This document shows, one piece after another, positions 13,398-43,077 of a stretch of DNA of 64,000 nt. Every line of letters begins with the position of its first letter. Positions within the stretch are counted from its first letter, which is position 1. The DNA lies in the NCBI GenBank assembly GCA_022574775.1, contig JACZRI010000001.1:31631-95630 (forward strand), given 5' to 3'. The DNA comes from Patescibacteria group bacterium. GTDB lineage: Bacteria > Patescibacteriota > Minisyncoccia > Minisyncoccales > RBG-13-36-15. The position numbers and the translations under genes were made by a program. The notes beneath the pieces were generated by a model, which saw nothing but the letters and a program-made list of their open reading frames with translations, searched no databases and was not told the DNA's origin.

Positions 13398-13434
13398 TTT
13401 GTTTACTGGTGGTTATTCCAGTAAATTGCTGTTG

Positions 13435-23068: not shown

Positions 23069-23203
23069 ATGAGTGTTACTTATCAACCTAAAAAAAGAAA
23101 AAGAAAAAGAACGCACGGGTTTTTAAAAAGAACACGTGGGAAGGGAGGAAAAAGGGTGCTTTTAAGAAGGAGAAGAAAAAAAAGAAAGAGATTAACAGTG
23201 TAG
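23069..23203 (+). CDS. rpmH: 50S ribosomal protein L34
   Basis: 44-aa [47 protein letters not shown], translated by hand and too short for the ORF track. It holds the canonical position upstream of rnpA. Confidence 0.85.
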
Positions 23204-23290
23204 GTGAAGTATGAATTACGAAGTATGAAGAAATGAATTGGTAAAACAGTCTTCAAATCTTCAACCTTTAGACTTCGTACTTTTTCTTTA

Positions 23291-23635
23291 TTGTTGCCCA
23301 AACAAAACAGGCTTAGAAAAAAAAATGATTTTGAGAAAGTTTTGAAAGAAGGAAGGTGGGTTAAGAACGACTTTTTATTTTTAAAATGGACATTTAATAA
23401 CTTAAAGGTTAGCCGTTTCGGGTTTGTAGTAAGCAGAAAAACCTCAAAAAAATCTACCCTAAGAAATAAAATTAAAAGAAGACTTAGAGAAATAATCAAA
23501 CGAGAACTCCCGAAAATTAAAAAAGGCATAGACGGAGTGTTTATTTCCAAGAGCGGATTGGAAAAAGAAGAATTCCAACAACTCAAGGAAACAGTAAGTA
23601 AAATTTTAACCAAGGCCAGGATTTTAAAAAAATGA
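23291..23635 (+). CDS. rnpA: RNase P protein component
   Basis: [20 protein letters not shown]..., 114 aa, basic, following rpmH. TTG start. Confidence 0.85.
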
Positions 23636-25172: not shown

Positions 25173-26675
25173 TCAAGGGGATATAGGTATAACTAGCATA
25201 AACTTGGTTTGATTATCACCAATATGTTGATCTTTTAGCCTTAAAACAGTTTTTCTAAAAACTTGCCCTCTTCCATCATCTCTAAATAAAACAGCAATAT
25301 AGTTACCTTCTATTTTAATTGAAGATACTTGATTAGGAGGAAAAACGCTACAATCAGTTATCCAGCGGGGTTTTTCTATAACTTGGGAAACATACATACC
25401 GCACGCTAAGCCATTTTCGTCTAAATTCAAATTTTCATGTTCATAAAGAGCTACCCCGCCCGGAGAGATTTCATTTCCCATCCATTGCTTGAAAACAGCA
25501 ATAGATGAAACGCTTGTGCCAACAGTATTTTGACAAAAAGAACTAAACATATTATTACCGCAGGGTTCCCCTCCATCATTTAAAGTTATACATTGCGGGG
25601 ACCAGGTTTCGGTTGAGCCTCCAAAAAAAACTTCAGCATCATGACGAAAATTATTATCTTCATACAAGATTGCCCCGAATTTATCAACAGGGACTGTTTT
25701 TTGACAATTTGTATACGTGGCTAAATCTGCGCATTGTATAAGACCGTCGGGGTGGTTATTACATGCGTCAAAAATAGGGTCGGTAGATCCGAACCCGCAC
25801 GTTATTCTTGTTTTTGACACTATCTTCATAGATTTTGCTTTATCAGTAAAATCACCAAGATCAGCAATATCAGTGACAAAAAGTTTGGGGTTTTCTTTAC
25901 ACTCGGTATCAGTAAAAAGATAGACCCCTGGCAATTTCCAGATTAATTGGATGGATTTACTTGCAGAGGGTACAGCGAAACAATCACCGCTGCTAAAAGG
26001 ATAAGGAGCAGCATCTTTTTCAGAATCCCAAACAGGGTTCTCTCCTGCAGGTTCGGGCCCGTAAAATCCTTCACCGAAAATTTTTACTTGCAGTTCATTA
26101 TTGGAGCTATAAAAATAAATCGATTTTGTTTTATTATTGAATCCTCCAACCGCAGGATCTCCCAACGAAGACATACTACCCCTCACTCTGAGAAAATCTT
26201 TGTCTACCACCAGTCCTGCTGCTTCTGGGTTGGCATTTCCTGGACAGCCCAGGTTTGTGTACAAAATAACTCCTTTTGCAAACTCCTTTTTCTCTATCGT
26301 TAAAGTTACCAACTGAGGGTTGAGCTGAATGAGAAACAAATAGGCTGTGATTAAAATAAGCAAACCTAAAATTCCAGCTGTAATCTGGCTTCTTGCATCA
26401 GACATTACAGTCGGGTTTCCCGCTGAAGCCAGATAGCGGAGTCCTCCATATACCAGGCTGATAAAAGCAACGAAACCGGCAATAATAAGAGCAAAGTTAA
26501 AAAGAAATTGAATATATTCTGGCAAGAGAGTCTTGACTGTTGTTGGGGTTTCAGCTCTGGGAACCTGAGGATAGATCTGTTCTAACTCTTGAGCCAGCAC
26601 CAAACCGCCAAAAACCAAAAACCAAAAACTAACAAAAACTAAGATACAAAGTATTTTTTTAAAATATTTCATCAT
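25173..26675 (-). CDS. Secreted or membrane protein: N-terminal VirB2/TrbC-like pilin domain fused to a ~370-aa Cys-rich beta-rich domain
   Basis: Signal peptide. Pilin-like module LPEYIQFLFNFALIIAGFVAFISLVYGGLRYLASAGNPTVMSDARSQITAGILGLLILITAYLFLIQLNP: two hydrophobic helices separated by a short polar loop. The ATG at 26675 overlaps the upstream TGA (ATGA). Confidence 0.7.
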   Translation of the reverse strand: MMKYFKKILCILVFVSFWFLVFGGLVLAQELEQIYPQVPRAETPTTVKTLLPEYIQFLFNFALIIAGFVAFISLVYGGLRYLASAGNPTVMSDARSQITAGILGLLILITAYLFLIQLNPQLVTLTIEKKEFAKGVILYTNLGCPGNANPEAAGLVVDKDFLRVRGSMSSLGDPAVGGFNNKTKSIYFYSSNNELQVKIFGEGFYGPEPAGENPVWDSEKDAAPYPFSSGDCFAVPSASKSIQLIWKLPGVYLFTDTECKENPKLFVTDIADLGDFTDKAKSMKIVSKTRITCGFGSTDPIFDACNNHPDGLIQCADLATYTNCQKTVPVDKFGAILYEDNNFRHDAEVFFGGSTETWSPQCITLNDGGEPCGNNMFSSFCQNTVGTSVSSIAVFKQWMGNEISPGGVALYEHENLNLDENGLACGMYVSQVIEKPRWITDCSVFPPNQVSSIKIEGNYIAVLFRDDGRGQVFRKTVLRLKDQHIGDNQTKFMLVIPISP

Positions 26676-27502
26676 GGGGTTCTTGGCCTGCAGCAAAAGA
26701 AATTCCTTGGATTACTACAATCTTGTCCTGCCGGCAAAATTTTATAAAATTTTGCATTCTCACAAGTAACTATAGTCTCGATTAGCTGAACCGTTTCTCC
26801 TGCTACATAACCTGAAGCTGGAAGCGCGCATTGTTCTAATGCAGTTCTTGCCGCCTCTAGTTTTGCTATAATACCGGGCCTTGTCGCTATGGCAGCGTTT
26901 ATTGCCGCTTCATTTGCAAGAATAAGAGGGTATAAAGCAGAAATTTGGCTGACATTAGCTGCGGCTTCAGCCATTAATGCAGGGTCGCAAGCATCTCCTG
27001 TGCAAGGCGAAATATTGCACTGAGAAACTTGTTGGCATGTTGTTTCTTGCCAGCAATACTCAGTTGAACAAAGCGGTGCTCCTAAGAATGGGAGACAAAT
27101 TTCTTCCTCTGTACAGCTTTCTCCTGGGGGGCAAGATGACCCACAATGTTCGTTCGTTGTGCACTCGGTGTGATAAGTAACATCACAGCCAGCCTGGCAG
27201 TTCTCTGCCTTGCATTCATTCGGAAGATCAAGCCCATGAATTGTATAAGCTGACGCAACCTGCTGTCCACCCCTGCTTAGCATTTGGTCGGCATTACTTG
27301 TTACAGTATTCACCAATACAATTGCTTCATCAAGAGCTTCCCCAATGGGAATTTCTTCTCCGCAGTCCCAAATCACTTCTCCCTGCGCCAAAGTTCCCTC
27401 TTCTTTATTATAAGGAAAAGTGAAAGCAAAGAGAAGCAGTACCAATATAGAAAGAAGGAAGATAAATTTTTTATACTTTTGAAAATGAAACTTCATAACC
27501 AT
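26672..27502 (-). CDS. Secreted Cys-rich protein, paralogous to the middle region of the 27521..29743 protein
   Basis: Signal peptide. EIPIGEALDEAIVL..., a dense Cys cluster, and ...DACDPALMAEAAANV...RPGIIAKLEAARTALEQC. These parallel YEIPIGQLIENALEP...DPCPNRAGIIAAKNAL in the next gene. Confidence 0.6.
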   Translation of the reverse strand: MVMKFHFQKYKKFIFLLSILVLLLFAFTFPYNKEEGTLAQGEVIWDCGEEIPIGEALDEAIVLVNTVTSNADQMLSRGGQQVASAYTIHGLDLPNECKAENCQAGCDVTYHTECTTNEHCGSSCPPGESCTEEEICLPFLGAPLCSTEYCWQETTCQQVSQCNISPCTGDACDPALMAEAAANVSQISALYPLILANEAAINAAIATRPGIIAKLEAARTALEQCALPASGYVAGETVQLIETIVTCENAKFYKILPAGQDCSNPRNFFCCRPRTP

Positions 27503-27520
27503 ATAAAATTTGTTTGATTA

Positions 27521-29743
27521 TTAACACTGGACAGCAAAATCGGTGCATAGATTAGAAGCACTCGTGACAGAGATGCACTCAATTCCCAAACATTCGATAG
27601 GAAGGGCATTCAAAGAATGTATTACCCCGTTTGGATAGTACGCAAAATGGAGGTGGTCACCAAAGGAATGGCCGGTATCATCAACAAAGCCAATGAGATC
27701 ACCTTTTGAAACCACTCTCCCGCCAGCAGGGATATCTGGGGCTACATCTGTATGACTGGTTTCTGTGAGATGGGCATAAACAAAAATTCCAGCTGATTCT
27801 CCTGTTTGAGGGTTAGTTGCCTGAAGGATAACATAAAAACCAAGTCCGTGTCCGTCGCTCCCTAATCCAAAAGCATTCCCATCAGCGACAGCATAAACCG
27901 GAGCACCCCTGACCGTACCCAAATCCATCCCATCATGGTAATATCCATCTGCCCTACAATAAGAGTGCCAACCGCCGCTAAAAGAAAAACTTTCTGGGTC
28001 AAGCGGACAACCTGCTAACCCAGGAGGAAGGGCGCTAGGAAATGTAGTACAGTTACCACTTGGAGCTGCTGGATTTAATTGCTCTTCTCCTGCAGCGGGA
28101 ATTAAATCCATATATATATCAAAGAAAACTGTCCAAAAATCAGGATTCTCGTCTCCTACGCCACTAAGAAGACAGCTGTTAGGTCCTCCAGACCAGCAGC
28201 GCATAAATCCACAAAACTCATTATTATTCCCAGTGGAGCATGTTGAAGGTCCGCAATTTCCTGTAGCTGGATCTGTTGTTGCAGCAAAACAACTTAGTTG
28301 ATCAACTATATTTGAAGTACCGTCTAAACATCCTAAAACAGAACAGTTGCCTCCGCCAGGAGGACATGCTATGCCATCTCTATCCCATCCTCCTTCCTCT
28401 TTCCATAGAGCCAAAATGAAGGCCGGATTCCATCCATTAGTATCTGCCCAATCTATTACATAGTCCCAGCAGTCTTTTCCCCCGGGACAAGAACCGTCAT
28501 CTATTTCTGGGTTAAAACTCACAAACTCACCTTTCCTGCCTTTAAGGAAACTTATCAGCTCTGGACTGCTATAATGTATATCAATTTTACACTCATCACA
28601 AACAGCGAGTGTATCAAACCGTGGAAAAGCAGGAAATCTTCCACCAGCCAATAAGCTGCTTATTTCTTCCTCATCAGTATAAAAAGTAGCAGGGTCGCCA
28701 AGGCCGCGAGTTCTCTGTCCTAAAACAACAAAAGGAATAACTTTTATTTCTTTCCCCGTTTGTATTATGGTTTGTTTTGTTTCTAAAAAGCTATCGTAAT
28801 TTACTGGAAAAATAGTTTGGTTGAATATTTCAGCCCCTATTTCTAATCTCTGTTCATCCTTTTTTAATGAAGTAAGTGGAGGGAGCATTGTTTCTATTGT
28901 TGCTGCCAAATTGTCAGCTAATCCTGGCAAAGCATTTTTTGCTGCAATAATACCAGCTCTATTCGGGCAAGGATCGTTTACGCATTGGGCTGTTGGTGGC
29001 GGAAGTGGAGCTGGGCAAGCTTGGCCTAACCCAGAAGCTACACAGCTGAAAGTAGGATTCGTATTATTACAGGAGCATTGGTTAAGTAAGTTCCAAAACT
29101 CCTCAGCTTTGTTTTTTAAGATTCCAGAGTCATTGCTAATTTGGCTTGCAATAGCAGTAATCGTACTTAACCTCACTGGTTCCAAGGCGTTTTCAATTAA
29201 TTGTCCAATAGGAATTTCATAGACCCTAAAAGTTATGGCTGTCAATTCAATTTGAGTGCAATCTTCAGGACAGCTTTCGTACTCTCCCAGCTCACATCTA
29301 TTGTTTCCACAAACCGTCACAATTTCTGGAAGTGGCGCATCGAGACGGAAAACGGCAAGCTGTGGGTTCACTATTACTAAAAAGAGATAAGAGCCCAACA
29401 AAATAATCAGGCCTAAAATTCCAGCTGTGATTTGATCTCTCGCGTCTGCCATTGCAGCCGGCGAGCCAACTGAAAACATATAACGGAGTCCTCCGTACAC
29501 TAAAGAAAAAAAGGCCACAAGCCCTGCAATAATTATGGAAAAATTGTATAAAAATTTTATATATTCTGGCAAAGTAGGTTCTGCTGAAAGGGGTGCGCCT
29601 GGGATTGTTGGATATTCAACCTCTAAATCTTGAGCAAACGCCTCGAAATTCGCCGCAAGAGGCGAATTTGAAAGGATAAAGAAAGCGAAGACCGAAAGAG
29701 TAAAAATGAGAAAAAATAATAATTTCTTTTTTCTAAACCTCAT
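27521..29743 (-). CDS. Secreted multidomain protein: VirB2/TrbC-like pilin domain + Cys-rich module + central domain + C-terminal M23 peptidase
   Basis: Pilin-like LPEYIKFLYNFSIIIAGLVAFFSLVYGGLRYMFSVGSPAAMADARDQITAGILGLIILLGSYLFLVIVNP. M23 motifs HDGMD and GHSFGDHLHF. The ATG at 29743 (MRFRKKK) lies 1 nt after the upstream TAA. Confidence 0.75.
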   Translation of the reverse strand: MRFRKKKLLFFLIFTLSVFAFFILSNSPLAANFEAFAQDLEVEYPTIPGAPLSAEPTLPEYIKFLYNFSIIIAGLVAFFSLVYGGLRYMFSVGSPAAMADARDQITAGILGLIILLGSYLFLVIVNPQLAVFRLDAPLPEIVTVCGNNRCELGEYESCPEDCTQIELTAITFRVYEIPIGQLIENALEPVRLSTITAIASQISNDSGILKNKAEEFWNLLNQCSCNNTNPTFSCVASGLGQACPAPLPPPTAQCVNDPCPNRAGIIAAKNALPGLADNLAATIETMLPPLTSLKKDEQRLEIGAEIFNQTIFPVNYDSFLETKQTIIQTGKEIKVIPFVVLGQRTRGLGDPATFYTDEEEISSLLAGGRFPAFPRFDTLAVCDECKIDIHYSSPELISFLKGRKGEFVSFNPEIDDGSCPGGKDCWDYVIDWADTNGWNPAFILALWKEEGGWDRDGIACPPGGGNCSVLGCLDGTSNIVDQLSCFAATTDPATGNCGPSTCSTGNNNEFCGFMRCWSGGPNSCLLSGVGDENPDFWTVFFDIYMDLIPAAGEEQLNPAAPSGNCTTFPSALPPGLAGCPLDPESFSFSGGWHSYCRADGYYHDGMDLGTVRGAPVYAVADGNAFGLGSDGHGLGFYVILQATNPQTGESAGIFVYAHLTETSHTDVAPDIPAGGRVVSKGDLIGFVDDTGHSFGDHLHFAYYPNGVIHSLNALPIECLGIECISVTSASNLCTDFAVQC

Positions 29744-29744
29744 T

Positions 29745-30134
29745 TTATTGTTGTAATTCAAAATAAACAGCTATAATCCAGAGTGGAAGTATTCCTACAA
29801 TTGGGATAAACTCGCCAATTATAAGAAGAGGTCTTAACCACTTCATTTTTTTTGCCCATTTGGCTATTTTTCCCATTCTACCTGCCGCTCTTCCTGTCAC
29901 CTGAACGGTTTGAGACCGAAAAAACATCCAGCCTCCAATAAAAATTAGCCCAAAAATATCTACGCCATAAGAAAGAATGTTTCCAATTACTGGAATTAAA
30001 TCAATTAACCCTGCCAAGTCAACAAGAACAGCCAGGGTTAACATTAAAATTCCCTCTGGGCTAAACAAAGCTCCCTGTTTTTGAGCTTCAGCGGCTTCTG
30101 TTCCTGTTTCCGAAATTTGAGCAACTTCCGCCAT
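29745..30134 (-). CDS. Small polytopic membrane protein of the T4SS-like operon
   Basis: 129 aa, 3-4 hydrophobic segments. Its start overlaps the VirB4 stop (TAATG). Confidence 0.55.
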   Translation of the reverse strand: MAEVAQISETGTEAAEAQKQGALFSPEGILMLTLAVLVDLAGLIDLIPVIGNILSYGVDIFGLIFIGGWMFFRSQTVQVTGRAAGRMGKIAKWAKKMKWLRPLLIIGEFIPIVGILPLWIIAVYFELQQ

Positions 30135-31951
30135 TATTTTAATCCTTTATTGGGTAATTTTTCTTTAGCAAGTTCCTTCTTAGCTTTTCTAATTTTTAAA
30201 ACTTCTTCAGGAGCTGTGGTAATTAACTGGTCTTCGCTATAAGAAGCAACAACTTTAATTGCCACATGTTTTTGTCCTGCAAAGAATAAGCCTTCCCCTA
30301 CTGCCGACTCCAGTAATAGATATTTTTCCTCGTCAGTTAAATTAAAAGTCTTTTTTACTATATCAATAGTTGCAGGACTCTGTTTCATTATCATTTGCAG
30401 AGAGGAGTTTGCAATAATCGGCTGGCCGTATTCAGATTTCATAAAATCTGAAACATCCTGAGTGATAGTTGTGACTCCCAGCCAGTATTTTCTTGCCCTC
30501 TTTGCAGTCCCGTATAAAAAGGAAGCTCCATCTCCAGTCTGCATTAACCACCAGGCCTCGTCTACAATCAAAATCCTTTTTTTCAGTTTTGAGCGGACAG
30601 TGTTCCAGATGTACCGTAGAACAATAAACATTGCCATTGGCCTTAATTCTTCTTCCATATCTCTGATTCCAAAGCACACAAATTGATTGTTCATATTAAT
30701 ATTTGAAGGCTGATTGAAAAAACTGGAATAAGTTCCCTTGGTAAACTTCCTGATTCTTCTTACTAAACTTTCTCCTCCTTCCATTGTATCCAAGACTGCC
30801 TCAAGGTCTGACATTAATGGAATTCTGTCGTGCCAAGTAGCAGGATCCGAATCTGTGGTAATATCCTTTGCGTTATAGGTTTCTGTGAGCGCCTGGTCAA
30901 TAATTGCATCTTCTTCCGGAGTCAAGCCACCGAGCATAATTCTTAACAATCCTACCAAGTTAATGATATTGGACCTTAAAATGTCTTCCGGTCTTTCGTC
31001 TTCTCTCGGAGTTGGTAAATCAAAAGGATTGAGGTGATGAGGAGAGGTTAAAGACATTTTAAAATAAGAACCTTCCACTGCGTCAGATAAAAATTCATAT
31101 TCATGTTCCGGGTCTATTATTATTACATCCACTCCCTGCATTAGATACCTAAGAATTTCTAATTTGATGGCGTAGGATTTTCCAGATCCTGCCTTCCCGA
31201 AAACGACTTCATTCGCGTTCTCTAAGGTGAACCTGTCAAATAGAATCAAAGAATTATTATGCCTGTTGATTCCGTACAGAATCCCTTCGCCGGATGAAAG
31301 ATCAAAAGAGAGAAAAGGAAAAAATGAAGAGAGGGGAGCAGTGTTCATCGGGGTTGAGACTTGTAGAAGATCTAAACCAGAAGGAGAACAGCAAATAAAC
31401 CCTTCCTTTTGCTGAAAGAGGGCTGGCTTAAGAAAGATTAATCTTGATTCAAAGATAGACCTTAAAACTGTTTCTGTGTTCCTCAAGTCTTTTTCTGTGT
31501 CACCGTAAATAGTCAGATAGAGCCCGAATTTGAACATTCTTTCCTGGGCAGACTGGAGTTTATCTCTTAGACCTTCCAGGTCCCGGTAAGCAATTTCTAA
31601 AACTGGATCTCTGATTAATCCTTTACCCTCTCTTTCCATAATTTGAGCTTGAACCTCGGTTACTTTCTTTCTAAGTTGTTTTAAAACTTTATCTGTCTCA
31701 ATAGGATGGACAAACATCGATACATCAATTGGAGTTTCAAGGTTAATTACCGGTGACAGCCAGCCAGAATTTATATATCTTGGAAAAGAGAAAGCAAAAA
31801 AGGATCTAGCAAATCTCTCGCCAAATTTAAGATGACTTTGACCGACTTCAATAGAGGCGGGCGCAATAATGTCTAGAGCAGTAATAGCTTCACGCTCAAA
31901 GATTCTTTCTGGAAGCTCTATTTCTTGTTTTTTAAAAAATGGCAGTTTCAT
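30134..31951 (-). CDS. virB4: VirB4/TrbE-family type IV secretion ATPase
   Basis: Walker A FGKAGSGKSY, Walker B RILIVDEAWW. The N-terminal segment ...FARSFFAFSFPRYINSGWL... is typical of VirB4. 605 aa. Confidence 0.8.
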   Translation of the reverse strand: MKLPFFKKQEIELPERIFEREAITALDIIAPASIEVGQSHLKFGERFARSFFAFSFPRYINSGWLSPVINLETPIDVSMFVHPIETDKVLKQLRKKVTEVQAQIMEREGKGLIRDPVLEIAYRDLEGLRDKLQSAQERMFKFGLYLTIYGDTEKDLRNTETVLRSIFESRLIFLKPALFQQKEGFICCSPSGLDLLQVSTPMNTAPLSSFFPFLSFDLSSGEGILYGINRHNNSLILFDRFTLENANEVVFGKAGSGKSYAIKLEILRYLMQGVDVIIIDPEHEYEFLSDAVEGSYFKMSLTSPHHLNPFDLPTPREDERPEDILRSNIINLVGLLRIMLGGLTPEEDAIIDQALTETYNAKDITTDSDPATWHDRIPLMSDLEAVLDTMEGGESLVRRIRKFTKGTYSSFFNQPSNINMNNQFVCFGIRDMEEELRPMAMFIVLRYIWNTVRSKLKKRILIVDEAWWLMQTGDGASFLYGTAKRARKYWLGVTTITQDVSDFMKSEYGQPIIANSSLQMIMKQSPATIDIVKKTFNLTDEEKYLLLESAVGEGLFFAGQKHVAIKVVASYSEDQLITTAPEEVLKIRKAKKELAKEKLPNKGLK

Positions 31952-32013
31952 AAATTAGTAGCTAAGTAGTAAGTATCTAAGATTTTATATAAAATACCAT
32001 CTACGAAATATAC

Positions 32014-32655
32014 CTATACAATGAGCTCCGGCGGTATTTCTGGGTAATAGCCAAATTCTGCTTCTTTTGGATGATGGGTTCTCCAGAAAAGCTCAATAAG
32101 CTCTTCTGTGGTCAAGGGCACAGCTTTCAATCCGCACCTTCTTAATCCAAGGGCCACAAATTCCACTCTTTGCCATAGCTGGGATTTACACCTTTGAAAT
32201 TCCTCTACAGTTAAGACTCGTGCCCTCTTTCTTTTTAACAACCTGGTACCTGCAGCTGGTCCCAGTGCTTCAAAAAGGGAAAATGGCACAATGACAAAGA
32301 ATGACTTGTTCATTATTGTTCCTGCCCCCACCAAGTTTTTAATAAAGTTATAGTATTCAGAGGTTTGGATTTTCAGTAATTCATTTTTTTGCTCTGTCTC
32401 TAATTCTTTTATTTTTTCTAAATACCCGGTAATATTTAATCTTCGCGACTGAACCAAGAATTGTGTGGAAAAATCCAGGGAATTTAAAAAGTTCTGGAAC
32501 TGATACGTAATTGCCTGCTGTTCCTCGTCAGACTTTAGGGCAAAATTCAAAGAAGAAACCATTAAAACTCCCCGTAAAGCCTGGTTCTTAAGGATAATTG
32601 TACCTTCTTTAATTTTGCTAATTGCCAAAAATTGTTGCGTAGATGACTGTGCCAT
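32014..32655 (-). CDS. Hypothetical soluble protein of the T4SS-like operon (possibly a detached VirB4 N-terminal module)
   Basis: 213 aa with no TM. The pattern ISKIKEGTIILKNQALRGVLMVSSLNFALKSDEEQQAITYQFQNFLNSLDF resembles, from memory, the N-terminus of Gram-positive VirB4-like ATPases. Confidence 0.5.
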   Translation of the reverse strand: MAQSSTQQFLAISKIKEGTIILKNQALRGVLMVSSLNFALKSDEEQQAITYQFQNFLNSLDFSTQFLVQSRRLNITGYLEKIKELETEQKNELLKIQTSEYYNFIKNLVGAGTIMNKSFFVIVPFSLFEALGPAAGTRLLKRKRARVLTVEEFQRCKSQLWQRVEFVALGLRRCGLKAVPLTTEELIELFWRTHHPKEAEFGYYPEIPPELIV

Positions 32656-32659
32656 ATTT

Positions 32660-33079
32660 TTACTTAGTTCTCGTTTCTATCTGAGTTGATAAATTGCTTA
32701 ATTTACTTTTTTTGCTCATTTTAAGCGAGCTTATTTTATCAATCTCTTCTTTTTTCAATCCTACCTCTTCTTTTTTGAGTATAATTTTTGGCGGGATTCT
32801 TTTTTTCTGCCAAATGTAAAGCTTGGAAGAGATAGTGAAAACAACAAAATTAGTCAGCACAGCAAAGATATTTCGTCCTCCAATTTTCAAGAAAGCAAAA
32901 ACTACGGCTAATCCCAATAAGAAAATACTAATCACTAAAAATAAAAATAAATGCTTAATTGTAAAATAAAGAAAAAAGATAACAATTCCAGCGCCTCCAA
33001 TCAAAAGAAATTGCCTCCAAGTGAGAGGACCTACAATTTTGGGAGATTGTTCAATAAATTGAGGGATGGTGAATTCCAT
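32660..33079 (-). CDS. PrgI-family (VirB3-like) small membrane protein
   Basis: 139 aa. IPQFIEQSPKIVGPLTWRQFLLIGG is followed by two TM helices. It sits just upstream of the VirB4-type genes, as in Gram-positive conjugation loci. Confidence 0.65.
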   Translation of the reverse strand: MEFTIPQFIEQSPKIVGPLTWRQFLLIGGAGIVIFFLYFTIKHLFLFLVISIFLLGLAVVFAFLKIGGRNIFAVLTNFVVFTISSKLYIWQKKRIPPKIILKKEEVGLKKEEIDKISSLKMSKKSKLSNLSTQIETRTK

Positions 33080-33180
33080 AATCGCTTCGTTAAATTAAAA
33101 TTTTAAAATGAAAAATGAAAAACTATAATCTAAAATCTTGATTTTTTATCATTTTTCTTTTTTCGCTTTTAGTTTTTCAT

Positions 33181-33618
33181 TTACTCAATTGCTTCCCGAT
33201 ACGTATCTGTTGTTTCTGGTTTCTCTTTTTCGGGCGAGGTTTTAGGTTTAACTTCTTTTATCACTCCCGGTGGTCTTGCAGGAGGATCAATCTCTATTTC
33301 ATAAAGCTTGGAAAGTATTTCCTTGACTGGGAAAAAGATAAAACGATTTATTTCCCTGGCGACATTTTTTGCCGTTTCTGCTTTTAGTTTCACTTTTTTA
33401 ATTAAGGTATCTTCAAATTCGTTGGGAGGCAGTAAACCTGACAAAACGTAGCCCGTACGTTCAGCTACTTCAGGAATTTTATTTTCTGGTACTTGATTTC
33501 TTTCGCAGGCATTGCCAATACTATCTGCAGTTTCTTGAGAAAAAACAGCTTCCTGCAACTCTTCTGGCAGTTTTTTATAAAGCTTCCAAAGTTGTTCTCT
33601 TAAGTATTCCTTCGGCAT
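33181..33618 (-). CDS. Hypothetical protein (145 aa, acidic, P/E/K-rich tail)
   Basis: Clean ORF co-oriented with the T4SS-like genes. No recognisable family. Confidence 0.5.
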   Translation of the reverse strand: MPKEYLREQLWKLYKKLPEELQEAVFSQETADSIGNACERNQVPENKIPEVAERTGYVLSGLLPPNEFEDTLIKKVKLKAETAKNVAREINRFIFFPVKEILSKLYEIEIDPPARPPGVIKEVKPKTSPEKEKPETTDTYREAIE

Positions 33619-33765
33619 TGATTTATTTTTATTATTTTATTTTATCACAACCTTTTTTTATTTGAAACGACTGCCTTATTATCTTTATTTTACTACAAAC
33701 AAGGGAAAGAAACCATAATACGACAATTATTACCGATCGCTAATTTCCTATAACAAAAACTGGTC

Positions 33766-33794
33766 TTGACAAATATCACACAAGCTTATATAAT
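33766..33794 (+). promoter_or_regulatory. Consensus sigma70-type promoter for the SPFH gene
   Basis: TTGACA at 33766-33771, a 17-nt spacer, TATAAT at 33789-33794. Confidence 0.7.
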
Positions 33795-33862
33795 TTAATA
33801 ATCAAGGATGCGGAGGGTTTCCTTGATAATTGTAACTTAAAAACTACATAGGAGGTGCGAAG

Positions 33863-35008
33863 ATGAGACAACGAGCAATAGATGTGGGGAAGTTCTTCTG
33901 GAAAGCTATAAAAAGAGGGATGACTATCAGCTACCAATTTTCTCGAGGAGGAATAAAGGAGGTAACAAGAATGAAGGTTAAAATGATCTATATATGGTTG
34001 AGTGTTGTAATAGCACTGTTTATTCTCGCCTTGACTTTGATTACGGTTGGGATTGTAATCGGTGATTACGGTTATCTAATGACTTTTTTTGGAGCACTAC
34101 TTCTTGTTTTGCTTGCTTTCTGGATCCGCCGCTGTTTCCGGAAAGTGGGATCTCTTGAGTCGCCAGCTCGGGCAGTAAGAGTTAGGTGGGGAAAGCCTCG
34201 AGATGTACTTGAAGCAGGCCTCCACATTATCTGGTGGCCAGTTGATGACTTGGTAGTATATCCAACCAAACAATATCTGGTAGATATTACGTGTACCAAG
34301 GTTCACTCAAAGAAAGATGAAAAACACGACACCGCTCTAATGACCGTTGAACTATCTGTTTACTTTGCTTGGCCAGGACTAAAAGATGAAGCCTACGATT
34401 TGATAGAAAGTTTTAAACGAGCGCCTACTCCTGCTGGAGGTTTCGCAGAGGATACAGAGCTTTACACAGCATTTTTTACTCCAACAATAGATGATGCTGT
34501 AAGAAATGTAATGGCAACACATAATCACGAAGACTGTCGCCAAGAAAAAGAAAAGATAGAGAGAGAAATTAAGGATTATTTACTCGACGAGGAGGGCAAC
34601 CCCTTTAAAGAAGCGAGTTTGCCTAAAGACAAAGTTGACGTAGCAATAACACAGATAAGTTTCACAGAAGCGATGGAACAAGCTTTCTCTGCCGAGGAAA
34701 TAGGTGTCAAAACAGGGGCAGGAGAAAAGGCTCGGAGAAGAGCGAATATCTCTGCTCTCATTGAGGAAGGAGTGCCTTCCCTCTTCGCTGCTATGTTTAT
34801 GGAGAAGGGTGAAGAAAAGGGATTTAGCTCCCAGGAGCTCATGTTTACAGCATTAGCTTTGAGAGTGTTTGGAATTGATTTTGGAAATATTGGGGGCACA
34901 GGGGTAAGAATCAGCGAAGAACAAGAGAGAAAACTTCTCGATCTTATTGGTCTAGATAAACGAAATGAATTTCGCCAACTCCTGAAAGAAGCAGGACTGG
35001 ATATATAA
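33863..35008 (+). CDS. SPFH (band 7/stomatin/HflK-like) domain membrane protein
   Basis: Two N-terminal TM helices, then an SPFH-like core: ARAVRVRWGKPRDVLEAGLHIIWWPVDDLVVYPTKQ, TALMTVELSVYFAW, IDDAVRNVMATHNHEDC. Own TTGACA-17-TATAAT promoter and SD. An alternative start ATG at 33971 also has an SD. Confidence 0.65.
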   Translation: MRQRAIDVGKFFWKAIKRGMTISYQFSRGGIKEVTRMKVKMIYIWLSVVIALFILALTLITVGIVIGDYGYLMTFFGALLLVLLAFWIRRCFRKVGSLESPARAVRVRWGKPRDVLEAGLHIIWWPVDDLVVYPTKQYLVDITCTKVHSKKDEKHDTALMTVELSVYFAWPGLKDEAYDLIESFKRAPTPAGGFAEDTELYTAFFTPTIDDAVRNVMATHNHEDCRQEKEKIEREIKDYLLDEEGNPFKEASLPKDKVDVAITQISFTEAMEQAFSAEEIGVKTGAGEKARRRANISALIEEGVPSLFAAMFMEKGEEKGFSSQELMFTALALRVFGIDFGNIGGTGVRISEEQERKLLDLIGLDKRNEFRQLLKEAGLDI

Positions 35009-35024
35009 AAGAGGCAAAAAAAAT

Positions 35025-35048
35025 AGGCTAGATCATCTAGCCTTTTTT
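35025..35048. terminator. Bidirectional terminator between the SPFH gene and the 84-aa gene
   Basis: aggctagat-c-atctagcct, flanked by A8 and T6 runs. Confidence 0.65.
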
Positions 35049-35068
35049 CTTTACAAATGAACAATACA

Positions 35069-35323
35069 TTATCTATACCTATTTTTACCATACCACTGCC
35101 TTTTTCCTTGTCTTTTTTCTGAGGCTCCTTCTGCTGTTTCTCCTTCTATTCTTTCTAGTTCTCCTTCAAAATGCCTTTCTAACTGTTCTAACATTTTTTC
35201 TTGCTTTTTTTTTTCTCTTTTTTTCCTTTCCTTCCTTCTCTTTGCTTCCTCTTCATCTAATTCTCTTGCGTGATCTAAGGTAAGTTGATCTAATATGCGC
35301 TTAACTTCTCTTTGGGTATCCAC
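35069..35323 (-). CDS. Hypothetical highly charged 84-aa protein
   Basis: GTG start with aaggaagg upstream. The K/E/R-rich sequence is predicted to be helical. A bidirectional terminator follows at 35025-35048. Confidence 0.4.
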   Translation of the reverse strand: MDTQREVKRILDQLTLDHARELDEEEAKRRKERKKREKKKQEKMLEQLERHFEGELERIEGETAEGASEKRQGKRQWYGKNRYR

Positions 35324-35473
35324 ACCTTGCCTTCCTTTCTATCAATGTTGTTAAATAGCTTGTTTTTCAGTTATAACATAAGTGGGAAAATTTAACAAGT
35401 TTTAAATTGTTGATATAGTAAAATTCAGGAGGGTTAAGTTCTTTCAAAGCAAATACCCAATCAAAGGAGGGAA

Positions 35474-35848
35474 ATGATGCTAGTCACCTGTCCAGAATGT
35501 AGGGCGAAAATCAGCAAAGTGGCTGATCCTTGTCCGAAATGCGGATTAACCTATGCAGGAGCACAATCCAAAGAAACGTGGGAGTCAACCGAGCAGGCCA
35601 TTCGTGGGGAAATTGGAACAGGAAAGGAAAGATCAGTTTCGAGCAAGGGAATAGGAATAAGTATATATCCATGTGAGTGCGAGCTTCGTGATAGTATTCG
35701 GGGACAGGTTACTAGAGTAAAATTAGAGAAAGATCATTCTGGCCGCTATTCTACTATCATTTACTGGATTCGTTGTTCAGTATGCGGGAAAGAGGTAGAA
35801 GTAAGGGAAGATTCTATAAGAAGGTTAGCCTGGCGGAAGACCTTGTAA
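35474..35848 (+). CDS. Zinc-ribbon protein (124 aa)
   Basis: N-terminal CPECRAKISKVADPCPKCG and a second Cys pair CSVCGKE. SD aaaggaggg, promoter-like TTAACA-16-TATAGT upstream, terminator downstream. Confidence 0.6.
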   Translation: MMLVTCPECRAKISKVADPCPKCGLTYAGAQSKETWESTEQAIRGEIGTGKERSVSSKGIGISIYPCECELRDSIRGQVTRVKLEKDHSGRYSTIIYWIRCSVCGKEVEVREDSIRRLAWRKTL

Positions 35849-35872
35849 GAATATAGACGCGGAAACAAAAAG

Positions 35873-35896
35873 GCGGGTAATTTCTACCCGCTTTTT
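35873..35896. terminator. Bidirectional terminator between the zinc-ribbon gene and the VirB6-like gene
   Basis: gcgggta-atttc-tacccgc, flanked by an A run and a T run. Confidence 0.65.
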
Positions 35897-35911
35897 GATG
35901 TGGAAGAACGG

Positions 35912-38131
35912 TTAAATTGTAAAGTATCCTCGACCCCCAGATTGGTGCATATAGCGGAGTAATGCAGGATTATTCTCTTTCAACCAGAACTCGGCATTGG
36001 AGATTTTTTCTCCTTTCGCTTTCTCTTTTTCCTCATCCGTTAATTGATCATACGCTAATTGTTTAATTCTATTTTCCAATGCTTCAGCTCCTGCACGCTG
36101 GCGCCATTTCAAGAAGTTGCCAATTCGATCTCCAGTCCAATTTTTAACTATAGACTCCATTAACTCTGGGTGCTGAAATCGTTTTGTACCTGGTACTCCT
36201 TCGTAATCTGCTCCTGTTGTTGCGTAAAGTCGATTTGAAATATATCCAGCCCTATCAGGTCTTGTTTTCACGAGAATTTCTTTGTGATAAGCTTTAACGA
36301 GAATTTGTTGTTGGGGTGGGGTAAGAGGAGGTAGAGGAGTACCGGGTGGGGAATCTGGCGGAGGGACAGGAAGTCCAGCGCCCACTCTTATTTCGCTCTC
36401 TAATAAGAAAGGCACTGCAGCTTTCATTTCTTTATGGAGCTGATATTTTTCGGCTTCCTTCATTGTATTGGCTATTTCCTCAAATGTTAATCCTTTATCT
36501 ATGGCTTCGTCAAAATCATAAGGGTCTTTTGCCAGTCTATTTGTGTAGCCAATTTTTGTTGCCCAATCAGGAGCTGCTCTAAGTTTTGAAAGAATCGTAT
36601 CCACTTCCATCCCTTGCATTTCCTTTTCAGCTTCAGCAGCTCTTTTTCTTTGAGCTTCCATAAAACCTGGTCCTATTGCTCTTCCTGTTGCTCGGGCTCC
36701 TGCCCACGTAGCAGTAGTTGTACCTCCTACTGCTACTCCTGCTCCACGTTTAGCCCAACCAATTGGATTCCAACGACTTTCTTTTCTCCCCCATTTAAAT
36801 TCAGGTGTTTTAATTCCTGACAGTCTTTCCGTTGCAAATTCCCTGATTCCTTTTGCTCTTTCTGATTCTTCCCATTTTGATCTTCCCCAAGATTCTGCTC
36901 TGTCTCTGGCTTGTCTTCTTGTCCATGGTGCTACTGCCTTTCCAAACTTTTGACCTCCAGCTATAATACCAGAAGCTCCCATTGCAGAAGTTGACAAGGC
37001 AACAAAAAAGCCAATTAATAAAAAGACCAAAGCCACCCCAAAAGGTAAAACCTCGTTTAAAAAGCCTTGTCCCGATTCTCTTGCGGCAATTTCAATCATA
37101 TGGTCTCCTAACCATAAGAAAAAGGCGGCAGAGACTCCGATTATGGTCCATTGCCAGAACTGATGCCACCAAAATGTAAAGAATCCTCTTGTTGCAGGTA
37201 AAATATAAGCGACGAAGGCCAAGGGAGACAAAATAACTAATATCCAGATAGCCACTCTTCTGATAATAAAAAGGAGAGCGAAAAGGAGGAAAATAATGGA
37301 AGCAAAGACATTATAGGCAGTCATAATGATTACTTTAAAAGTAAGCTCGAGATTTGCTAAGGCATCAAAAGATCCAATGTTTTGGAGAGTATTAGCAATT
37401 GTTTGGCCAATAGACTTAAATCTGGTAGCTAAACTCTCAGTTCCGCTCAGTCCTGACAAGAAAAAATTCATTGTAATATTGGCGCCATCAACAATGACTC
37501 CTAAAATGACCGGGGTGAAATTAATGAGTAAGGCTACCCCGATTAAACGAGGAAGAGTTTTCTGTGCTTGATACTCTTTTAACCTGAGGGCAGTTGCCAA
37601 GCCAATAAAGACTAATACCAAAACGATAAACATATTAGATAAGTCCCTGACAACTGGCCAACCAACATCAACCACTCCTCCTGAGGTATAGGAGGAAATA
37701 AGAAAGAAGGGATCGACTGCCCAGCCTAAAACCATCCTGGCAAAATCTAAAAGAACTATACTCAAGGCAAGGATAAGAGACATTATTATTGTGGCTATAG
37801 CTCCTGCAATGGCGCCTGCTATACCTCCAGCAATGCCAGCAGCCCCTTTTATTGCGCCCAATAATCCTGGACCCCATCCAAAACCAATAGGCGGAAGAAT
37901 TGGAAAAAATTGGGATTGGGCATAAGACAAAGGAAAGAATAATCCCAAAATAATAAAAAATAAAATGGTCCCAGACCAAAAAACCCGCTTGGATATAAAA
38001 TAGCTAGAGATTAAATTTTTAGGTTTTTTATCCATTACATTCAATAGATAATATTTTGATAACAGTTCGCGCGAAGTTGGTTTTACCCGATTTTTTACTG
38101 GAAGATAGATGAGCGTGGCGCGGATTGCCAC
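35912..38131 (-). CDS. VirB6/TrbL-like polytopic membrane protein with a large C-terminal soluble domain
   Basis: 739 aa (707 aa if it starts at ATG 38035). There are 8 or more hydrophobic segments including the glycine zipper GAIKGAAGIAGGIAGAIAGAIATI, then a ~330-aa hydrophilic C-terminus. It sits at the head of the T4SS-like locus. Confidence 0.6.
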   Translation of the reverse strand: MAIRATLIYLPVKNRVKPTSRELLSKYYLLNVMDKKPKNLISSYFISKRVFWSGTILFFIILGLFFPLSYAQSQFFPILPPIGFGWGPGLLGAIKGAAGIAGGIAGAIAGAIATIIMSLILALSIVLLDFARMVLGWAVDPFFLISSYTSGGVVDVGWPVVRDLSNMFIVLVLVFIGLATALRLKEYQAQKTLPRLIGVALLINFTPVILGVIVDGANITMNFFLSGLSGTESLATRFKSIGQTIANTLQNIGSFDALANLELTFKVIIMTAYNVFASIIFLLFALLFIIRRVAIWILVILSPLAFVAYILPATRGFFTFWWHQFWQWTIIGVSAAFFLWLGDHMIEIAARESGQGFLNEVLPFGVALVFLLIGFFVALSTSAMGASGIIAGGQKFGKAVAPWTRRQARDRAESWGRSKWEESERAKGIREFATERLSGIKTPEFKWGRKESRWNPIGWAKRGAGVAVGGTTTATWAGARATGRAIGPGFMEAQRKRAAEAEKEMQGMEVDTILSKLRAAPDWATKIGYTNRLAKDPYDFDEAIDKGLTFEEIANTMKEAEKYQLHKEMKAAVPFLLESEIRVGAGLPVPPPDSPPGTPLPPLTPPQQQILVKAYHKEILVKTRPDRAGYISNRLYATTGADYEGVPGTKRFQHPELMESIVKNWTGDRIGNFLKWRQRAGAEALENRIKQLAYDQLTDEEKEKAKGEKISNAEFWLKENNPALLRYMHQSGGRGYFTI

Positions 38132-39442: not shown

Positions 39443-40426
39443 TTGGTTTTTAAGACTTCTTCTTTTTCTCCGCAGAACACAGGGCTTAGCAGCACCACCT
39501 TACAAGAAAACATTTTAGCATCTGTTTCTCAAAGGTTCTCTGGCAGTATAGGGCAAGAGAGCCTTTTTCTTGGGAAGATCGGGTTGGAGGAGCCTGAATT
39601 TCCATCTCTCAATATAGTTCAAAATAATAGCTTAGTAGGTATTTCTCCTCCAATCACTGTTTCACCAAAAGTTTTGGGCAGTTCAGGGAATTTTAATGAA
39701 GAACCAAAAGAAGTTTCTGAGTACGTTGTTCAATTCGGTGATAATCTATCTTTAATCGCTGAAAAATTTAATATCTCTCTAAACACCCTGCTTTGGGCGA
39801 ACGATTTGAGCAGCAGTTCCTCTATTAATTCCGGTCAAAAACTTATTATTCTCCCGGTCTCCGGGATTTTGCACCATGTGAAGAATGGAGAAACATTAAG
39901 CGGTATTACTAAAACATATCAAGGCGATATAGCTGAAATTGTTTCTTTTAACGAGCTTTCGGGCGAAAGTATTTTTATTGGGGATATTTTAATTATCCCC
40001 GACGGCAAGATGCCTTCAAAGCCAAAATATACTTCAGCGCCAGTTTCTCAAATTCCCTTAGCAGGCTCTTACTTTATTTTTCCCACCCAGGGAAAAATAA
40101 GTCAGGGTCTTCACTGGTATAATGCGGTAGATATTGCAAATGATTGCGGAAACCCTATTTATGCAGCAGCAGGAGGCAAGGTTTTAAGCACTAAGTACGG
40201 ATACAATCTAGGAGCTGGGAATTACATTAAAATATTGCATCCTAACGGCGCAGTTACTTTTTATGGACATTTAAATAGTATTTTAATTGGATCTGGCCAA
40301 TCTGTTTCTCAAGGTCAGACCATCGCACTGACTGGAGGGAAACCAGGAACACTGGGAGCTGGAATATCAACTGGTTGCCATTTGCATTTTGAGGTACGAG
40401 GAGCAAGAAATCCTTTTGCGGGATAG
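39443..40426 (+). CDS. LysM (x2) + M23 peptidase cell-wall hydrolase; the N-terminus is probably longer than the track ORF
   Basis: LysM repeats YVVQFGDNLSLIAEKFNISLNTLLWAN and HHVKNGETLSGITKTYQG. M23 motifs AVDIA, YGHL and GCHLHFEV. The frame stays open upstream to 39209 and encodes a TM helix. Confidence 0.75.
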   Translation: MVFKTSSFSPQNTGLSSTTLQENILASVSQRFSGSIGQESLFLGKIGLEEPEFPSLNIVQNNSLVGISPPITVSPKVLGSSGNFNEEPKEVSEYVVQFGDNLSLIAEKFNISLNTLLWANDLSSSSSINSGQKLIILPVSGILHHVKNGETLSGITKTYQGDIAEIVSFNELSGESIFIGDILIIPDGKMPSKPKYTSAPVSQIPLAGSYFIFPTQGKISQGLHWYNAVDIANDCGNPIYAAAGGKVLSTKYGYNLGAGNYIKILHPNGAVTFYGHLNSILIGSGQSVSQGQTIALTGGKPGTLGAGISTGCHLHFEVRGARNPFAG

Positions 40427-42249: not shown

Positions 42250-42352
42250 AGGCCCTACGATTACGAATCATTACGAATATACGAATTTATATCTTCATTA
42301 TAGCTTTAAAATTGATTTTTCCCAATAATTTTGATAGAATATCAATATATTT

Positions 42353-42424
42353 GCCCTCGTGGTGTAATGGATAGCATTTTTGTCTTCGGAACAAAAGATA
42401 GGGGTTCGAGTCCTCTCGAGGGCA
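42353..42424 (+). tRNA. tRNA-Arg (anticodon UCG)
   Basis: Hand-folded cloverleaf. Acceptor gccctcg/cgagggc, anticodon stem tttgt/acaaa with loop cTTCGga, T arm agggg-ttcgagt-cctct, discriminator A. No encoded CCA. Confidence 0.85.
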
Positions 42425-42435
42425 TTGAGAAGAAA

Positions 42436-42918
42436 ATGAAAAAGAGAATTTTTATAATTTTAGTTTTTTTGTTTGTGGTTTCACTGCTTTCTTTTATCCC
42501 TCAAGGAATTCAGGCTGGAGGAGAGTGTACCGCAAATGTTTGTACAAATGGGTCAGGAGGATTGGTGCCTTGTGGAAGAGATTGCGACGATCCTAACACA
42601 GGATATAACGAGACATGTCCCTGTCAGCTTTGTCATTTCTTTGTGATGATGGACAGAATTTTAGATTTTATTTTTTTGATTCTTGTTCCCACAGTCGCTG
42701 TTTTGATGCTGGTAATTGGGGGAATAATGTTCTTTTTCGCCGGGGGAAGTCCTCAAAGGCTTGAAAGCGCAAAATCAATAATCACTTCAACAATTACGGG
42801 TTTGGTAATTATTTTTACTGCATGGGTGATAATTAATACGTTTTTTATAATTATCGGAGTAAATACTTGGACTGGCCTTGAATCAGGTTGGTTTACAATA
42901 GATTGTGCGGTTGATTGA
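42436..42918 (+). CDS. Small VirB2/TrbC-like pilin-domain protein with a Cys-rich N-terminal region
   Basis: Signal peptide, Cys cluster (CTANVCTNG..CGRDCDD..CPCQLC), then two hydrophobic helices around GGIMFFFAGGSPQRLESAKSIITSTITGLVII, matching the pilin modules at 26.4 and 29.4 kb. The track ORF start at 42331 runs through the tRNA, so the ATG at 42436 is used. Confidence 0.65.
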   Translation: MKKRIFIILVFLFVVSLLSFIPQGIQAGGECTANVCTNGSGGLVPCGRDCDDPNTGYNETCPCQLCHFFVMMDRILDFIFLILVPTVAVLMLVIGGIMFFFAGGSPQRLESAKSIITSTITGLVIIFTAWVIINTFFIIIGVNTWTGLESGWFTIDCAVD

Positions 42919-43004: not shown

Positions 43005-43077
43005 GCCCCGTTAGCTCAATTGGTAGAGCAGATCCCTCTTAAGGATAAGGTTGTGGGTTCAAATCCCTCACGGGGCA
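43005..43077 (+). tRNA. tRNA-Lys (anticodon CUU)
   Basis: Acceptor gccccgt/acggggc, D arm gctc-aattggta-gagc, anticodon loop cTCTTaa. The T arm gtggg-ttcaaat-ccctc has one U-U mismatch. Discriminator A. Confidence 0.8.

Follow-up and report, generated by a model that had tools for sequence, protein, structure and literature searches.

A chromosomal Patescibacteria-type type IV secretion locus near dnaA with pilin-type modules joined to large predicted extracellular domains

What kind of machine is encoded by a type IV secretion system (T4SS) gene set that lies among housekeeping genes of a chromosome, with no relaxase or coupling protein found nearby? The question is raised by a cluster at 25173-38131 in a 64,000-nucleotide stretch of a Patescibacteria group bacterium (GCA_022574775.1, contig JACZRI010000001.1, positions 31,631 to 95,630; this whole stretch is termed the window). 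The original prediction, made from the DNA letters, had read the cluster as a T4SS-like apparatus with pilins fused to enzymatic or adhesive cargo and as not a described T4SS type. The locus is very probably a chromosomal, origin-proximal, relaxase-less T4SS of the Patescibacteria type, taken together with a proposed host-directed role. Its component set is an extended VirB6-like protein, PrgI/VirB3, a split VirB4, three T4SS_pilin-module proteins and an M23 cell-wall peptidase, and the sequences support a T4SS-like apparatus of the monoderm, MPF_FATA-related type. Novelty of the system did not survive the literature search, as the kind is already published and reviewed (PMC10633639; PMC12102498; PMC12857230) and the window locus is one more member.

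The ATPase body of VirB4 (30134-31951, minus strand, 605 amino acids) carries the Walker A motif GKAGSGKSY and the Walker B motif IVDEAWW and matches NF045971, the model of VirB4-like proteins of the CD1110 family, with 358 bits (cut-off 325) over profile positions 177-734 of 752. It also matches Pfam P-loop_TraG (95 bits), aligns with residues 221-772 of PrgJ from pCF10 (23% identity, E 2e-35) and is without the first ~180-220 residues of full-length VirB4 proteins. Between prgI and virB4 lies a TrsD-like open reading frame (ORF) of 213 amino acids (32014-32655, minus strand), which gives NCBIfam matches to VirB4_plasma (positions 102-233, E 2.3e-9), conju_CD1110 (positions 5-104, E 0.0017) and TrsD (E 0.0058), all below the cut-offs, and has a precomputed match to the TraC-like family PF26593. 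Because pairwise BLAST against PrgJ is weak, being collinear at residues 45-106 with an E value of 0.15, its assignment as the VirB4 N-terminal domain in a gene of its own is based on the NCBIfam profiles and the precomputed Pfam match. With the ATPase beginning at about position 177 of the CD1110 profile, or residue 221 of PrgJ, and the smaller ORF matching the N-terminal part, VirB4 is on these profiles encoded as two proteins, a TrsD-like N-domain protein and the 605-amino-acid ATPase, whereas pCF10 VirB4 is a single protein of 796 amino acids.

A synteny set of 80 related loci, one genome per species, was used for comparison. Their VirB4 is 56-88% identical to that of the window, which together with the NF045971 match places the window VirB4 in the Patescibacteria-clade MPF_FATA-related type. 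The genomes are labeled Nealsonbacteria, Parcubacteria, Paceibacteria/Paceibacterota or Minisyncoccales, and for many the label is a generic 'Saccharibacteria' given by an automated binning project. The trsD-like gene is present in 76 of the 80 loci and prgI in 72. In the window the PrgI/VirB3-like small membrane protein (32660-33079, minus strand, 139 amino acids) is recognized by PF12666 with 35.6 bits against a cut-off of 27. The VirB6-like polytopic membrane protein (35912-38131, minus strand, 739 amino acids) is encoded 49 nucleotides downstream of ksgA and has a TrbL-like core at residues ~169-373 followed by a hydrophilic C-terminal extension of ~350 amino acids. Its match to the TrbL/VirB6 family PF04610 in the Pfam scan (19.3 bits) falls under the gathering score of 25.9, whereas an identical protein has a precomputed match to TrbL_3 (PF19590) on record, and virB6 homologues found with phmmer lie upstream of prgI in 33 of the loci. 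The predicted VirB4 and PrgI calls were thus borne out, and the VirB6 call is borderline, with the TrbL_3 record and the conserved position in its favor and the PF04610 match below threshold. The genes listed in that prediction (VirB6-like, PrgI, VirB4 and the 129-amino-acid, 740-amino-acid, Cys-rich and 500-amino-acid proteins) are real and correctly placed; the list omitted the TrsD-like ORF, a conserved ORF of 145 amino acids and a free pilin encoded outside the cluster.

The window covers a housekeeping part of a genome low in G+C (~0.31-0.48 in 2-kb windows). Minus-strand dnaN and dnaA are followed by plus-strand rpmH, rnpA, yidD, yidC and jag/khpB; the T4SS cluster starts 75 nucleotides past jag on the minus strand and is bounded on its other flank by ksgA, beyond which lie genes for a LysM-M23 peptidase, the CCA-adding enzyme, tRNAs, polynucleotide phosphorylase, NusA, H+-pyrophosphatase, trigger factor and ClpP. 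DnaA-box matches in the window are at chance level (15 compared with 14.9 expected) and give no direct evidence of oriC, so the predicted position next to the origin stands solely on the dnaN-dnaA and rpmH-rnpA-yidD-yidC-jag context. The common gene order among the related loci is ksgA, virB6, the 145-amino-acid gene, prgI, trsD, virB4, the 129-amino-acid gene, one to three pilin-module proteins, jag, yidC, dnaA and dnaN, and it recurs in dozens of species-level genomes. No match to VirD4, relaxase, VirB11 or integrase families was obtained in the ~50 window ORFs scanned against Pfam, which agrees with what had been predicted for the 64 kb, and neither a coupling protein, a relaxase nor an integrase is among the genes called ~7-10 kb past each window end (~17 kb extra, ~80 kb in total). 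The chromosomal and non-conjugative appearance therefore holds, since the cluster is set among housekeeping genes and DNA-processing genes were not found nearby; with coupling protein and relaxase sought there and not found, the locus is not functionally a conjugative MPF_FATA system.

Three proteins of the window carry a T4SS_pilin-type module. The largest (27521-29743, minus strand; NCBI MCH8741349.1) is a secreted membrane protein of 740 amino acids. Its signal sequence is followed by a T4SS_pilin-type helical hairpin (residues ~38-130), and after a helical middle region rich in Cys come a region at 410-550 and a C-terminal M23 domain. The match to T4SS_pilin (PF18895) reaches 24.3 bits, under the cut-off of 26.6, and covers residues 72-131 of the 746-amino-acid ORF (66-125 of the 740-amino-acid protein), and the AlphaFold2 (AF2) model, with a predicted local distance difference test (pLDDT) score of 67, places helices at 58-90 and 95-125. 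Peptidase_M23 (PF01551) is matched with 46.7 bits against a cut-off of 28.7, the HxxxD, catalytic His and HxH motifs are present, and H603, D607, H658 and H697 are invariant in 16 homologues. The C-terminal domain has the M23 fold and conserved zinc/catalytic residues of LytM/lysostaphin-type endopeptidases, with Foldseek template modeling (TM) scores of 0.75-0.81 to LytM/lysostaphin and an E value of 3e-22 for the family profile against zoocin A. It differs from those enzymes in that a pilin-type hairpin and two more regions stand before it and in that its gene lies within a T4SS cluster. The predicted union of a pilin-type module with an M23 peptidase is thereby upheld, by the above-threshold M23 match and the hairpin of the AF2 model. 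Pfam gave no assignment to the isolated regions 171-360 and 410-550; the latter gives a tentative lysozyme-like impression (a W..EE motif; SLT_3 or SLT in relatives).

The second fusion (25173-26675, minus strand; NCBI MCH8741347.1) is a protein of 500 amino acids with a signal sequence, a pilin-type hairpin (residues ~30-125) and a β-rich extracellular region. It matches PF18895 with 22.6 bits, again under the 26.6-bit cut-off, its module is 60% identical to that of the 740-amino-acid protein (the two are paralogous), and its AF2 model (pLDDT 65.5) has helices at 53-83 and 88-118. On that model the β-rich region superposes with two-domain γ-crystallins in Foldseek (E 1e-4, TM 0.62-0.65), so the modeled C-terminal region resembles the βγ-crystallin fold; Pfam Crystall does not match the protein itself and matches one homologue (P0034).

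The third protein is a free canonical T4SS pilin, a 160-amino-acid precursor encoded on the plus strand at 42436-42918 between tRNA-Arg (42352-42425) and tRNA-Lys (43005-43078) and annotated 'hypothetical protein' (NCBI MCH8741362.1). Its signal peptide is followed by a Cys-rich 'LVPCGR..C.C..C' segment and then by a hairpin of two helices, and it matches PF18895 with 44.9 bits (cut-off 26.6) and TrbC/VirB2 (PF04956) weakly (E 0.0035, 18 bits, under the cut-off of 27.9). Because the longest ORF starts within the tRNA-Arg gene, the pilin is hidden in a mechanical ORF list; a pilin-module hidden Markov model run over all window ORFs finds it at E 5.7e-20. The predicted fusion of pilin to enzymatic or adhesive cargo thus applies to two proteins, while a canonical pilin stands free 4.3 kb away. 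A signal peptide followed by a hydrophobic two-helix hairpin is the layout of VirB2/TrbC-type pilins and is seen in the AF2 models and sequences of the window modules. Known VirB2 pilins have ~70-130 amino acids without appended domains, with adhesion provided by a separate tip protein, VirB5, whereas two of the window modules are covalently joined to domains of 350-600 amino acids.

The fusion architecture is not peculiar to the window genome. In the related loci 105 module-bearing ORFs are found in 62 of the 80, with a median length of 430 amino acids and only 9 below 200, some of them cut by contig ends. PF18895 is matched by 53 of the 88 members of the pilin-module family. Most of the module-bearing ORFs have no other Pfam domain, the remainder carrying SLT (10), lamin-tail (3), a C39-like peptidase (1) or crystallin (1). 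Outside the 80 loci, the PF18895 plus M23 architecture of the 740-amino-acid protein occurs in at least 6 other metagenomic proteins, and there are variants with M23 and SLT_3 or a C39-like peptidase. When the 100-residue module was run with phmmer against 1.84 billion cluster representatives, 14,541 matched at E <=1e-3, of which 2,180 reached E <=1e-10. The best 150 of the 14,541 have a median length of 455 amino acids, with 7 below 200 and 21 bearing 2-6 tandem modules. No other segment is as well conserved across the family of M23 fusions as the module, which has a mean column identity of 0.83 compared with 0.53 for the M23 domain. Judged from these alignments, the architecture is real, abundant and constrained, and the conservation of the module exceeds the need of a plain membrane anchor.

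Several relatives differ in how module and cargo are arranged. The tandem-module proteins (P0045-P0048, P0061, P0146 and 15 others) are single polypeptides of 380-920 amino acids with 2-6 T4SS_pilin modules; by their sequences they may be polyproteins or multi-hairpin membrane proteins, and no description of them was found in the literature searched. An 'LVPCG'-type module forms the C terminus of proteins of 240-860 amino acids encoded between ksgA and virB6 in related loci (L006 2894-5113, L020 853-3333, L021 2303-4507, L024 639-3224, L013 2690-3418 and L044 3-1430). These proteins carry tandem ~90-amino-acid Cys-containing repeats with the motif W.V.AC.D..G..CG.WS..W.F.T, so that the cargo is N-terminal, the reverse of the two fusions in the window. 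A protein of 1032 amino acids (L009 12748-15846) has β-helix-like repeats, a module in the middle (416-510) and then a Cys-rich region opening with an 'EIPVG.LIEN' motif, which is common to the 740-amino-acid protein and, weakly, to a 276-amino-acid protein of the window cluster. The latter (26672-27502, minus strand) is Cys-rich with an N-terminal signal/anchor sequence, has no family match in Pfam or NCBIfam, shares with the middle region of the 740-amino-acid protein only a weak, short 'EIPIG..L.E' motif (BLASTP E 0.014) and has homologues in 2 of the 80 loci.

The closest described counterpart is the T4SS of the Saccharibacterium Southlakia epibionticum (SEML1_0006-0019), which has a pilin array and no recognizable coupling protein or relaxase and is essential (Wang et al. 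2023, PMC10633639). A survey of 2,474 Patescibacteria virB4 genes (Quiñonero-Coronel et al. 2025, PMC12102498) describes the same component set of VirB4, TrsD, PrgI/VirB3, VirB6 and PF18895/VirB2-like pilins, with relaxases lacking and sites near dnaA/dnaN/ksgA, and reports TrsD as the most abundant T4SS protein in Patescibacteria; a 2025 FEMS review also lists these systems (PMC12857230). The window locus is like this Patescibacteria-clade T4SS in being chromosomal, in its MPF_FATA-related VirB4, TrsD-like protein, PrgI/VirB3 and PF18895 pilins and, as a borderline match, its VirB6-like protein, in a peptidase gene after virB4, in having no relaxase or coupling protein nearby and in its place near dnaA/dnaN/ksgA. 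It differs in its pilins, which in Southlakia are six small proteins (genes of ~380-420 nucleotides where sized), whereas in the window locus and related Paceibacteria most pilin-module proteins have 300-1000 amino acids with extra extracellular domains, and the window has one small pilin only, displaced by 4.3 kb. Compared with the Prg/Pcf system of pCF10 (Enterococcus faecalis), the MPF_FATA prototype, VirB4/PrgJ is homologous, the PrgI family is shared and the order VirB6-VirB3-VirB4-wall hydrolase is the same, but pCF10 has the coupling protein PcfC, the relaxase PcfG, the VirB8-like PrgL and LPXTG adhesins, none of which was found in the window locus, and an hhalign comparison of the 740-amino-acid protein family with the pCF10 hydrolase PrgK was not significant. 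The premise of the original prediction that Gram-positive T4SSs lack VirB2 pilins is itself under revision, being contested by a preprint on pCF10 PrgF as a VirB2-like pilin (bioRxiv 10.64898/2025.12.18.695078).

By analogy with these systems, VirB4, held at the membrane by PrgI/VirB3 and VirB6, would power a membrane platform that pulls hairpin pilins out of the membrane and assembles a short pilus or conduit across the cell's own wall, with the small free pilin as the likeliest bulk subunit. The two large proteins would insert via Sec with the hairpin loop inside and the C terminus and Cys-rich domains outside, the outside location being suggested by arginines in the hairpin loop and by the Cys-rich or wall-active nature of the C-terminal domains. 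The M23 fusion may then be the machine-associated wall hydrolase, a functional counterpart of VirB1/PrgK, and the crystallin-like fusion may be an adhesin, each directed by its pilin module to the machine or to one end of the pilus, base or tip. As in Southlakia, the apparatus would serve host-dependent growth (attachment and macromolecule exchange with the host) and not conjugation. Southlakia transposon sequencing showed the T4SS genes and the pilin array to be essential for epibiotic growth (PMC10633639; PMC12857230), and extracellular T4SS-pilin-domain proteins are listed, without further treatment, among the most highly expressed genes of archaea-parasitising Paceibacteria (mBio 2024, PMC10936435).

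Patescibacteria make up a large share of the uncultured bacteria, and theirs is the first T4SS found to be essential to the growth of the cell that bears it. Cultivated Paceibacteria parasitise methanogenic archaea, and in this branch large fusions with wall-degrading or adhesin-like domains make up most of the pilin-type proteins, with stronger constraint on the pilin module than on the enzyme domain. No analysis was found in the literature searched of the way in which Paceibacteria systematically join the pilin module to large extracellular domains; the feature is a property of thousands of database proteins and is not specific to the window. To our knowledge, no described T4SS pilus has such covalently decorated subunits. 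A broader proposal, speculative and on balance improbable, would be that the VirB2-type hairpin in Paceibacteria is a general covalent carrier with enzymes (M23, SLT, C39-like) and adhesin-like domains (crystallin, lamin-tail, tandem Ig-like) at either end and in some cases 2-6 modules strung together, such that the T4SS filament or conduit displays lytic and adhesive domains at the contact with a host, possibly an archaeon. The M23 fusion, the crystallin-like fusion and the free small pilin are testable candidates for the host-touching parts, and caution is due in surveys, where not every PF18895 match can be counted as a simple pilin.

Several observations weigh against the reading as a host-directed T4SS with module-targeted fusions. 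All mechanistic steps are by analogy, as neither pilus, substrate nor activity has been observed for any Paceibacteria T4SS. A VirB8-like component was not identified in the locus by sequence searches, and both AF2 models are of moderate confidence (pLDDT 65-67). The 2025 survey found 2,918 Patescibacteria genomes with coupling protein homologues elsewhere, only 148 of these being near virB4 (PMC12102498). With a profile built from 30 pilin modules, no VirB2/TraA/TrbC pilin was recovered from the whole set of PDB sequences, the best matches being unrelated membrane helices at E >=0.02, and comparison of the module profile with pCF10 PrgF by hhalign did not reach significance (probability 1.5%). 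The sole direct link of the modules to characterised VirB2 pilins is the sub-threshold TrbC match of the small pilin; Foldseek, in which whole models cannot isolate the short hairpin, gave a weak match to the Aeropyrum conjugation pilin 8dfu (E 2.7, TM 0.60). The kinship to characterised VirB2 pilins is consequently indirect, through the Pfam family name, the weak TrbC match and the Southlakia pilins that match both PF18895 and PF04956 (PMC10633639). A domain of 400-600 amino acids on each subunit would also crowd a VirB2-type filament, and bulk polymerisation of the fusions is doubtful.

Steric crowding is also an argument for the strongest alternative, in which the modules of the 740- and 500-amino-acid proteins are mere two-helix membrane anchors of surface enzymes and adhesins that never enter a pilus, their link to the T4SS being co-expression only. 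The free small pilin could form the filament alone, the C-terminal domains are highly diverse over the relatives (SLT, lamin-tail, C39-like peptidase, crystallin), and the module also weakly matches the HtrII transmembrane hairpin family. Set against these points, simple anchors usually drift, whereas the module is the most conserved part of the proteins (0.83 compared with 0.53-0.60), the fusion genes lie directly 3' of virB4 and the 129-amino-acid membrane protein gene with overlapping or 1-nucleotide-spaced junctions, and their position is kept in 62 of the 80 loci. The anchor explanation is a serious contender, if the less probable one.

A machine for the import of DNA, or of a nucleotide source, like Helicobacter ComB or archaeal Ced, is an unlikely explanation. 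Patescibacteria are unable to synthesize nucleotides, uptake of DNA or other macromolecules from hosts is proposed in the 2025 survey (PMC12102498), and VirB4 weakly matches the models of the DNA-import ATPases CedB and CedD (47 and 25 bits, far under the cut-offs). These matches are explained by general VirB4 homology, however, the best model being that of the conjugative CD1110 family, and the locus has no DNA-binding or DNA-processing component. In Southlakia, DNA uptake needs comEC, which is dispensable for epibiotic growth, whereas the T4SS is essential (PMC10633639; PMC12857230).

A further possibility, with still less in its favor and quite improbable, is that the fusions are precursors from which the module is cut after export, so that it acts as an export or targeting carrier and the enzyme or adhesin is released. 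Both ends of the RP4 TrbC and Ti VirB2 pilins undergo processing, helix 2 closes with an invariant N-P motif ahead of a low-confidence linker, and the 21 tandem-module proteins among the 150 best database relatives would be sensible as polyproteins. A TraF-like processing protease was not found in the locus, however, the N-P motif may simply cap the helix, and this explanation is drawn purely from sequences and models.

That the locus is part of an integrated conjugative element with relaxase, coupling protein and attachment sites outside the window is scarcely credible. In its favor, the family of the window VirB4 (CD1110) takes its name from conjugative elements, and the scan for relaxase and coupling protein covers ~80 kb of the genome. 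Against it, the same order in the dnaA, dnaN, yidC, jag and ksgA context is fixed in dozens of species over a deep divergence (VirB4 identity down to 56%), neither an integrase nor a repeat boundary was seen around the locus, the genes beyond both window ends are housekeeping genes, and the G+C of the cluster (0.35-0.43) lies within that of the window with no sign of foreign origin.

Within the locus the genes are arranged as two transcription units and not as the single translationally coupled operon first proposed. From virB4 to the gene of the 500-amino-acid protein the successive junctions are as predicted, namely a 1-nucleotide overlap, a 1-nucleotide gap, an 18-nucleotide gap and a 4-nucleotide overlap. 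The separation of virB6 from the rest follows from two plus-strand genes and terminator-like hairpins that part them. The interruption (33863-35848, plus strand), which is not a part of the machine, comprises two genes, one for an SPFH/Band-7 protein (33863-35008), whose promoter at 33766-33794 is a perfect consensus match, and one for a Zn-ribbon protein (35474-35848); an ORF of 84 amino acids (35069-35323, minus strand) also lies inside it. Directly past the virB6 stop, a strong terminator-like hairpin with a T-run (35873-35891, minus strand; GCGGGTAGAAATTACCCGC then CTTTTTGTTT, 8 pairs) would end the predicted ksgA-virB6 transcription unit; a second, bidirectional terminator-like hairpin is at 35025-35043, and a promoter-like site for the second T4SS unit is at 33666-33639, ahead of the 145-amino-acid gene. 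In relatives virB6 normally stands directly before that gene, and an SPFH homologue is there in only 3 of the 80 loci.

The first gene of the second unit (33181-33618, minus strand) encodes the conserved 145-amino-acid protein, which has no Pfam or NCBIfam match and has homologues directly upstream of prgI in 33 of the loci. The 129-amino-acid membrane protein (29745-30134, minus strand), the start of which overlaps the virB4 stop by 1 nucleotide, likewise has no family match in Pfam or NCBIfam, and its homologues lie directly 3' of virB4 in 21 loci. Past ksgA, a conserved neighbor encodes a peptidase of 327 amino acids with two LysM domains and an M23 domain (39443-40426, plus strand); homologues adjoin ksgA-virB6 in 19 of the loci, and the protein is a possible accessory cell-wall enzyme whose membership of the T4SS is putative.

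Other observations concern genes outside the cluster. A PilB/PilT-type T2SSE ATPase at 9678-11003 (plus strand) is a type IV pilus gene, of a machine distinct from the T4SS, and T2SSE and T2SSF genes lie ~6-8 kb past the right end of the window on a near-identical contig of another sample that carries the right-hand genes of the window (L083 15518-17560). A secreted protein of 651 amino acids (14259-16214, plus strand) has three lamin-tail domains and MopE-type metal-binding motifs; lamin-tail domains are also fused to pilin modules in relatives. An ORF of 176 amino acids at 23083-23613 (minus strand) gave an impression of conservation in 13 related loci but is no gene, being the shadow of rpmH-rnpA on the opposite strand. 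The segment at 12300-14260 has a G+C of 0.475, compared with ~0.31-0.44 elsewhere in the window, and no convincing ORF with a family match; an Rfam search of this G+C-rich, gene-poor region (12250-14300) gave no match even at E 0.1. Three adjacent paralogous proteins of ~285 amino acids with coiled-coil-like C termini and no real family assignment are encoded at 5465-8092 (minus strand), downstream of a 5'-3' exonuclease gene and upstream of genes for a histidine kinase and two response regulators. An ORF of 828 amino acids at 46388-48874 (plus strand), which has no Pfam match, is set in a stretch with an extreme purine skew (GC skew 0.34, AT skew 0.45); its product has a predicted coiled coil of ~560 residues rich in Glu and Lys, a single transmembrane segment and a C-terminal domain of ~200 amino acids.

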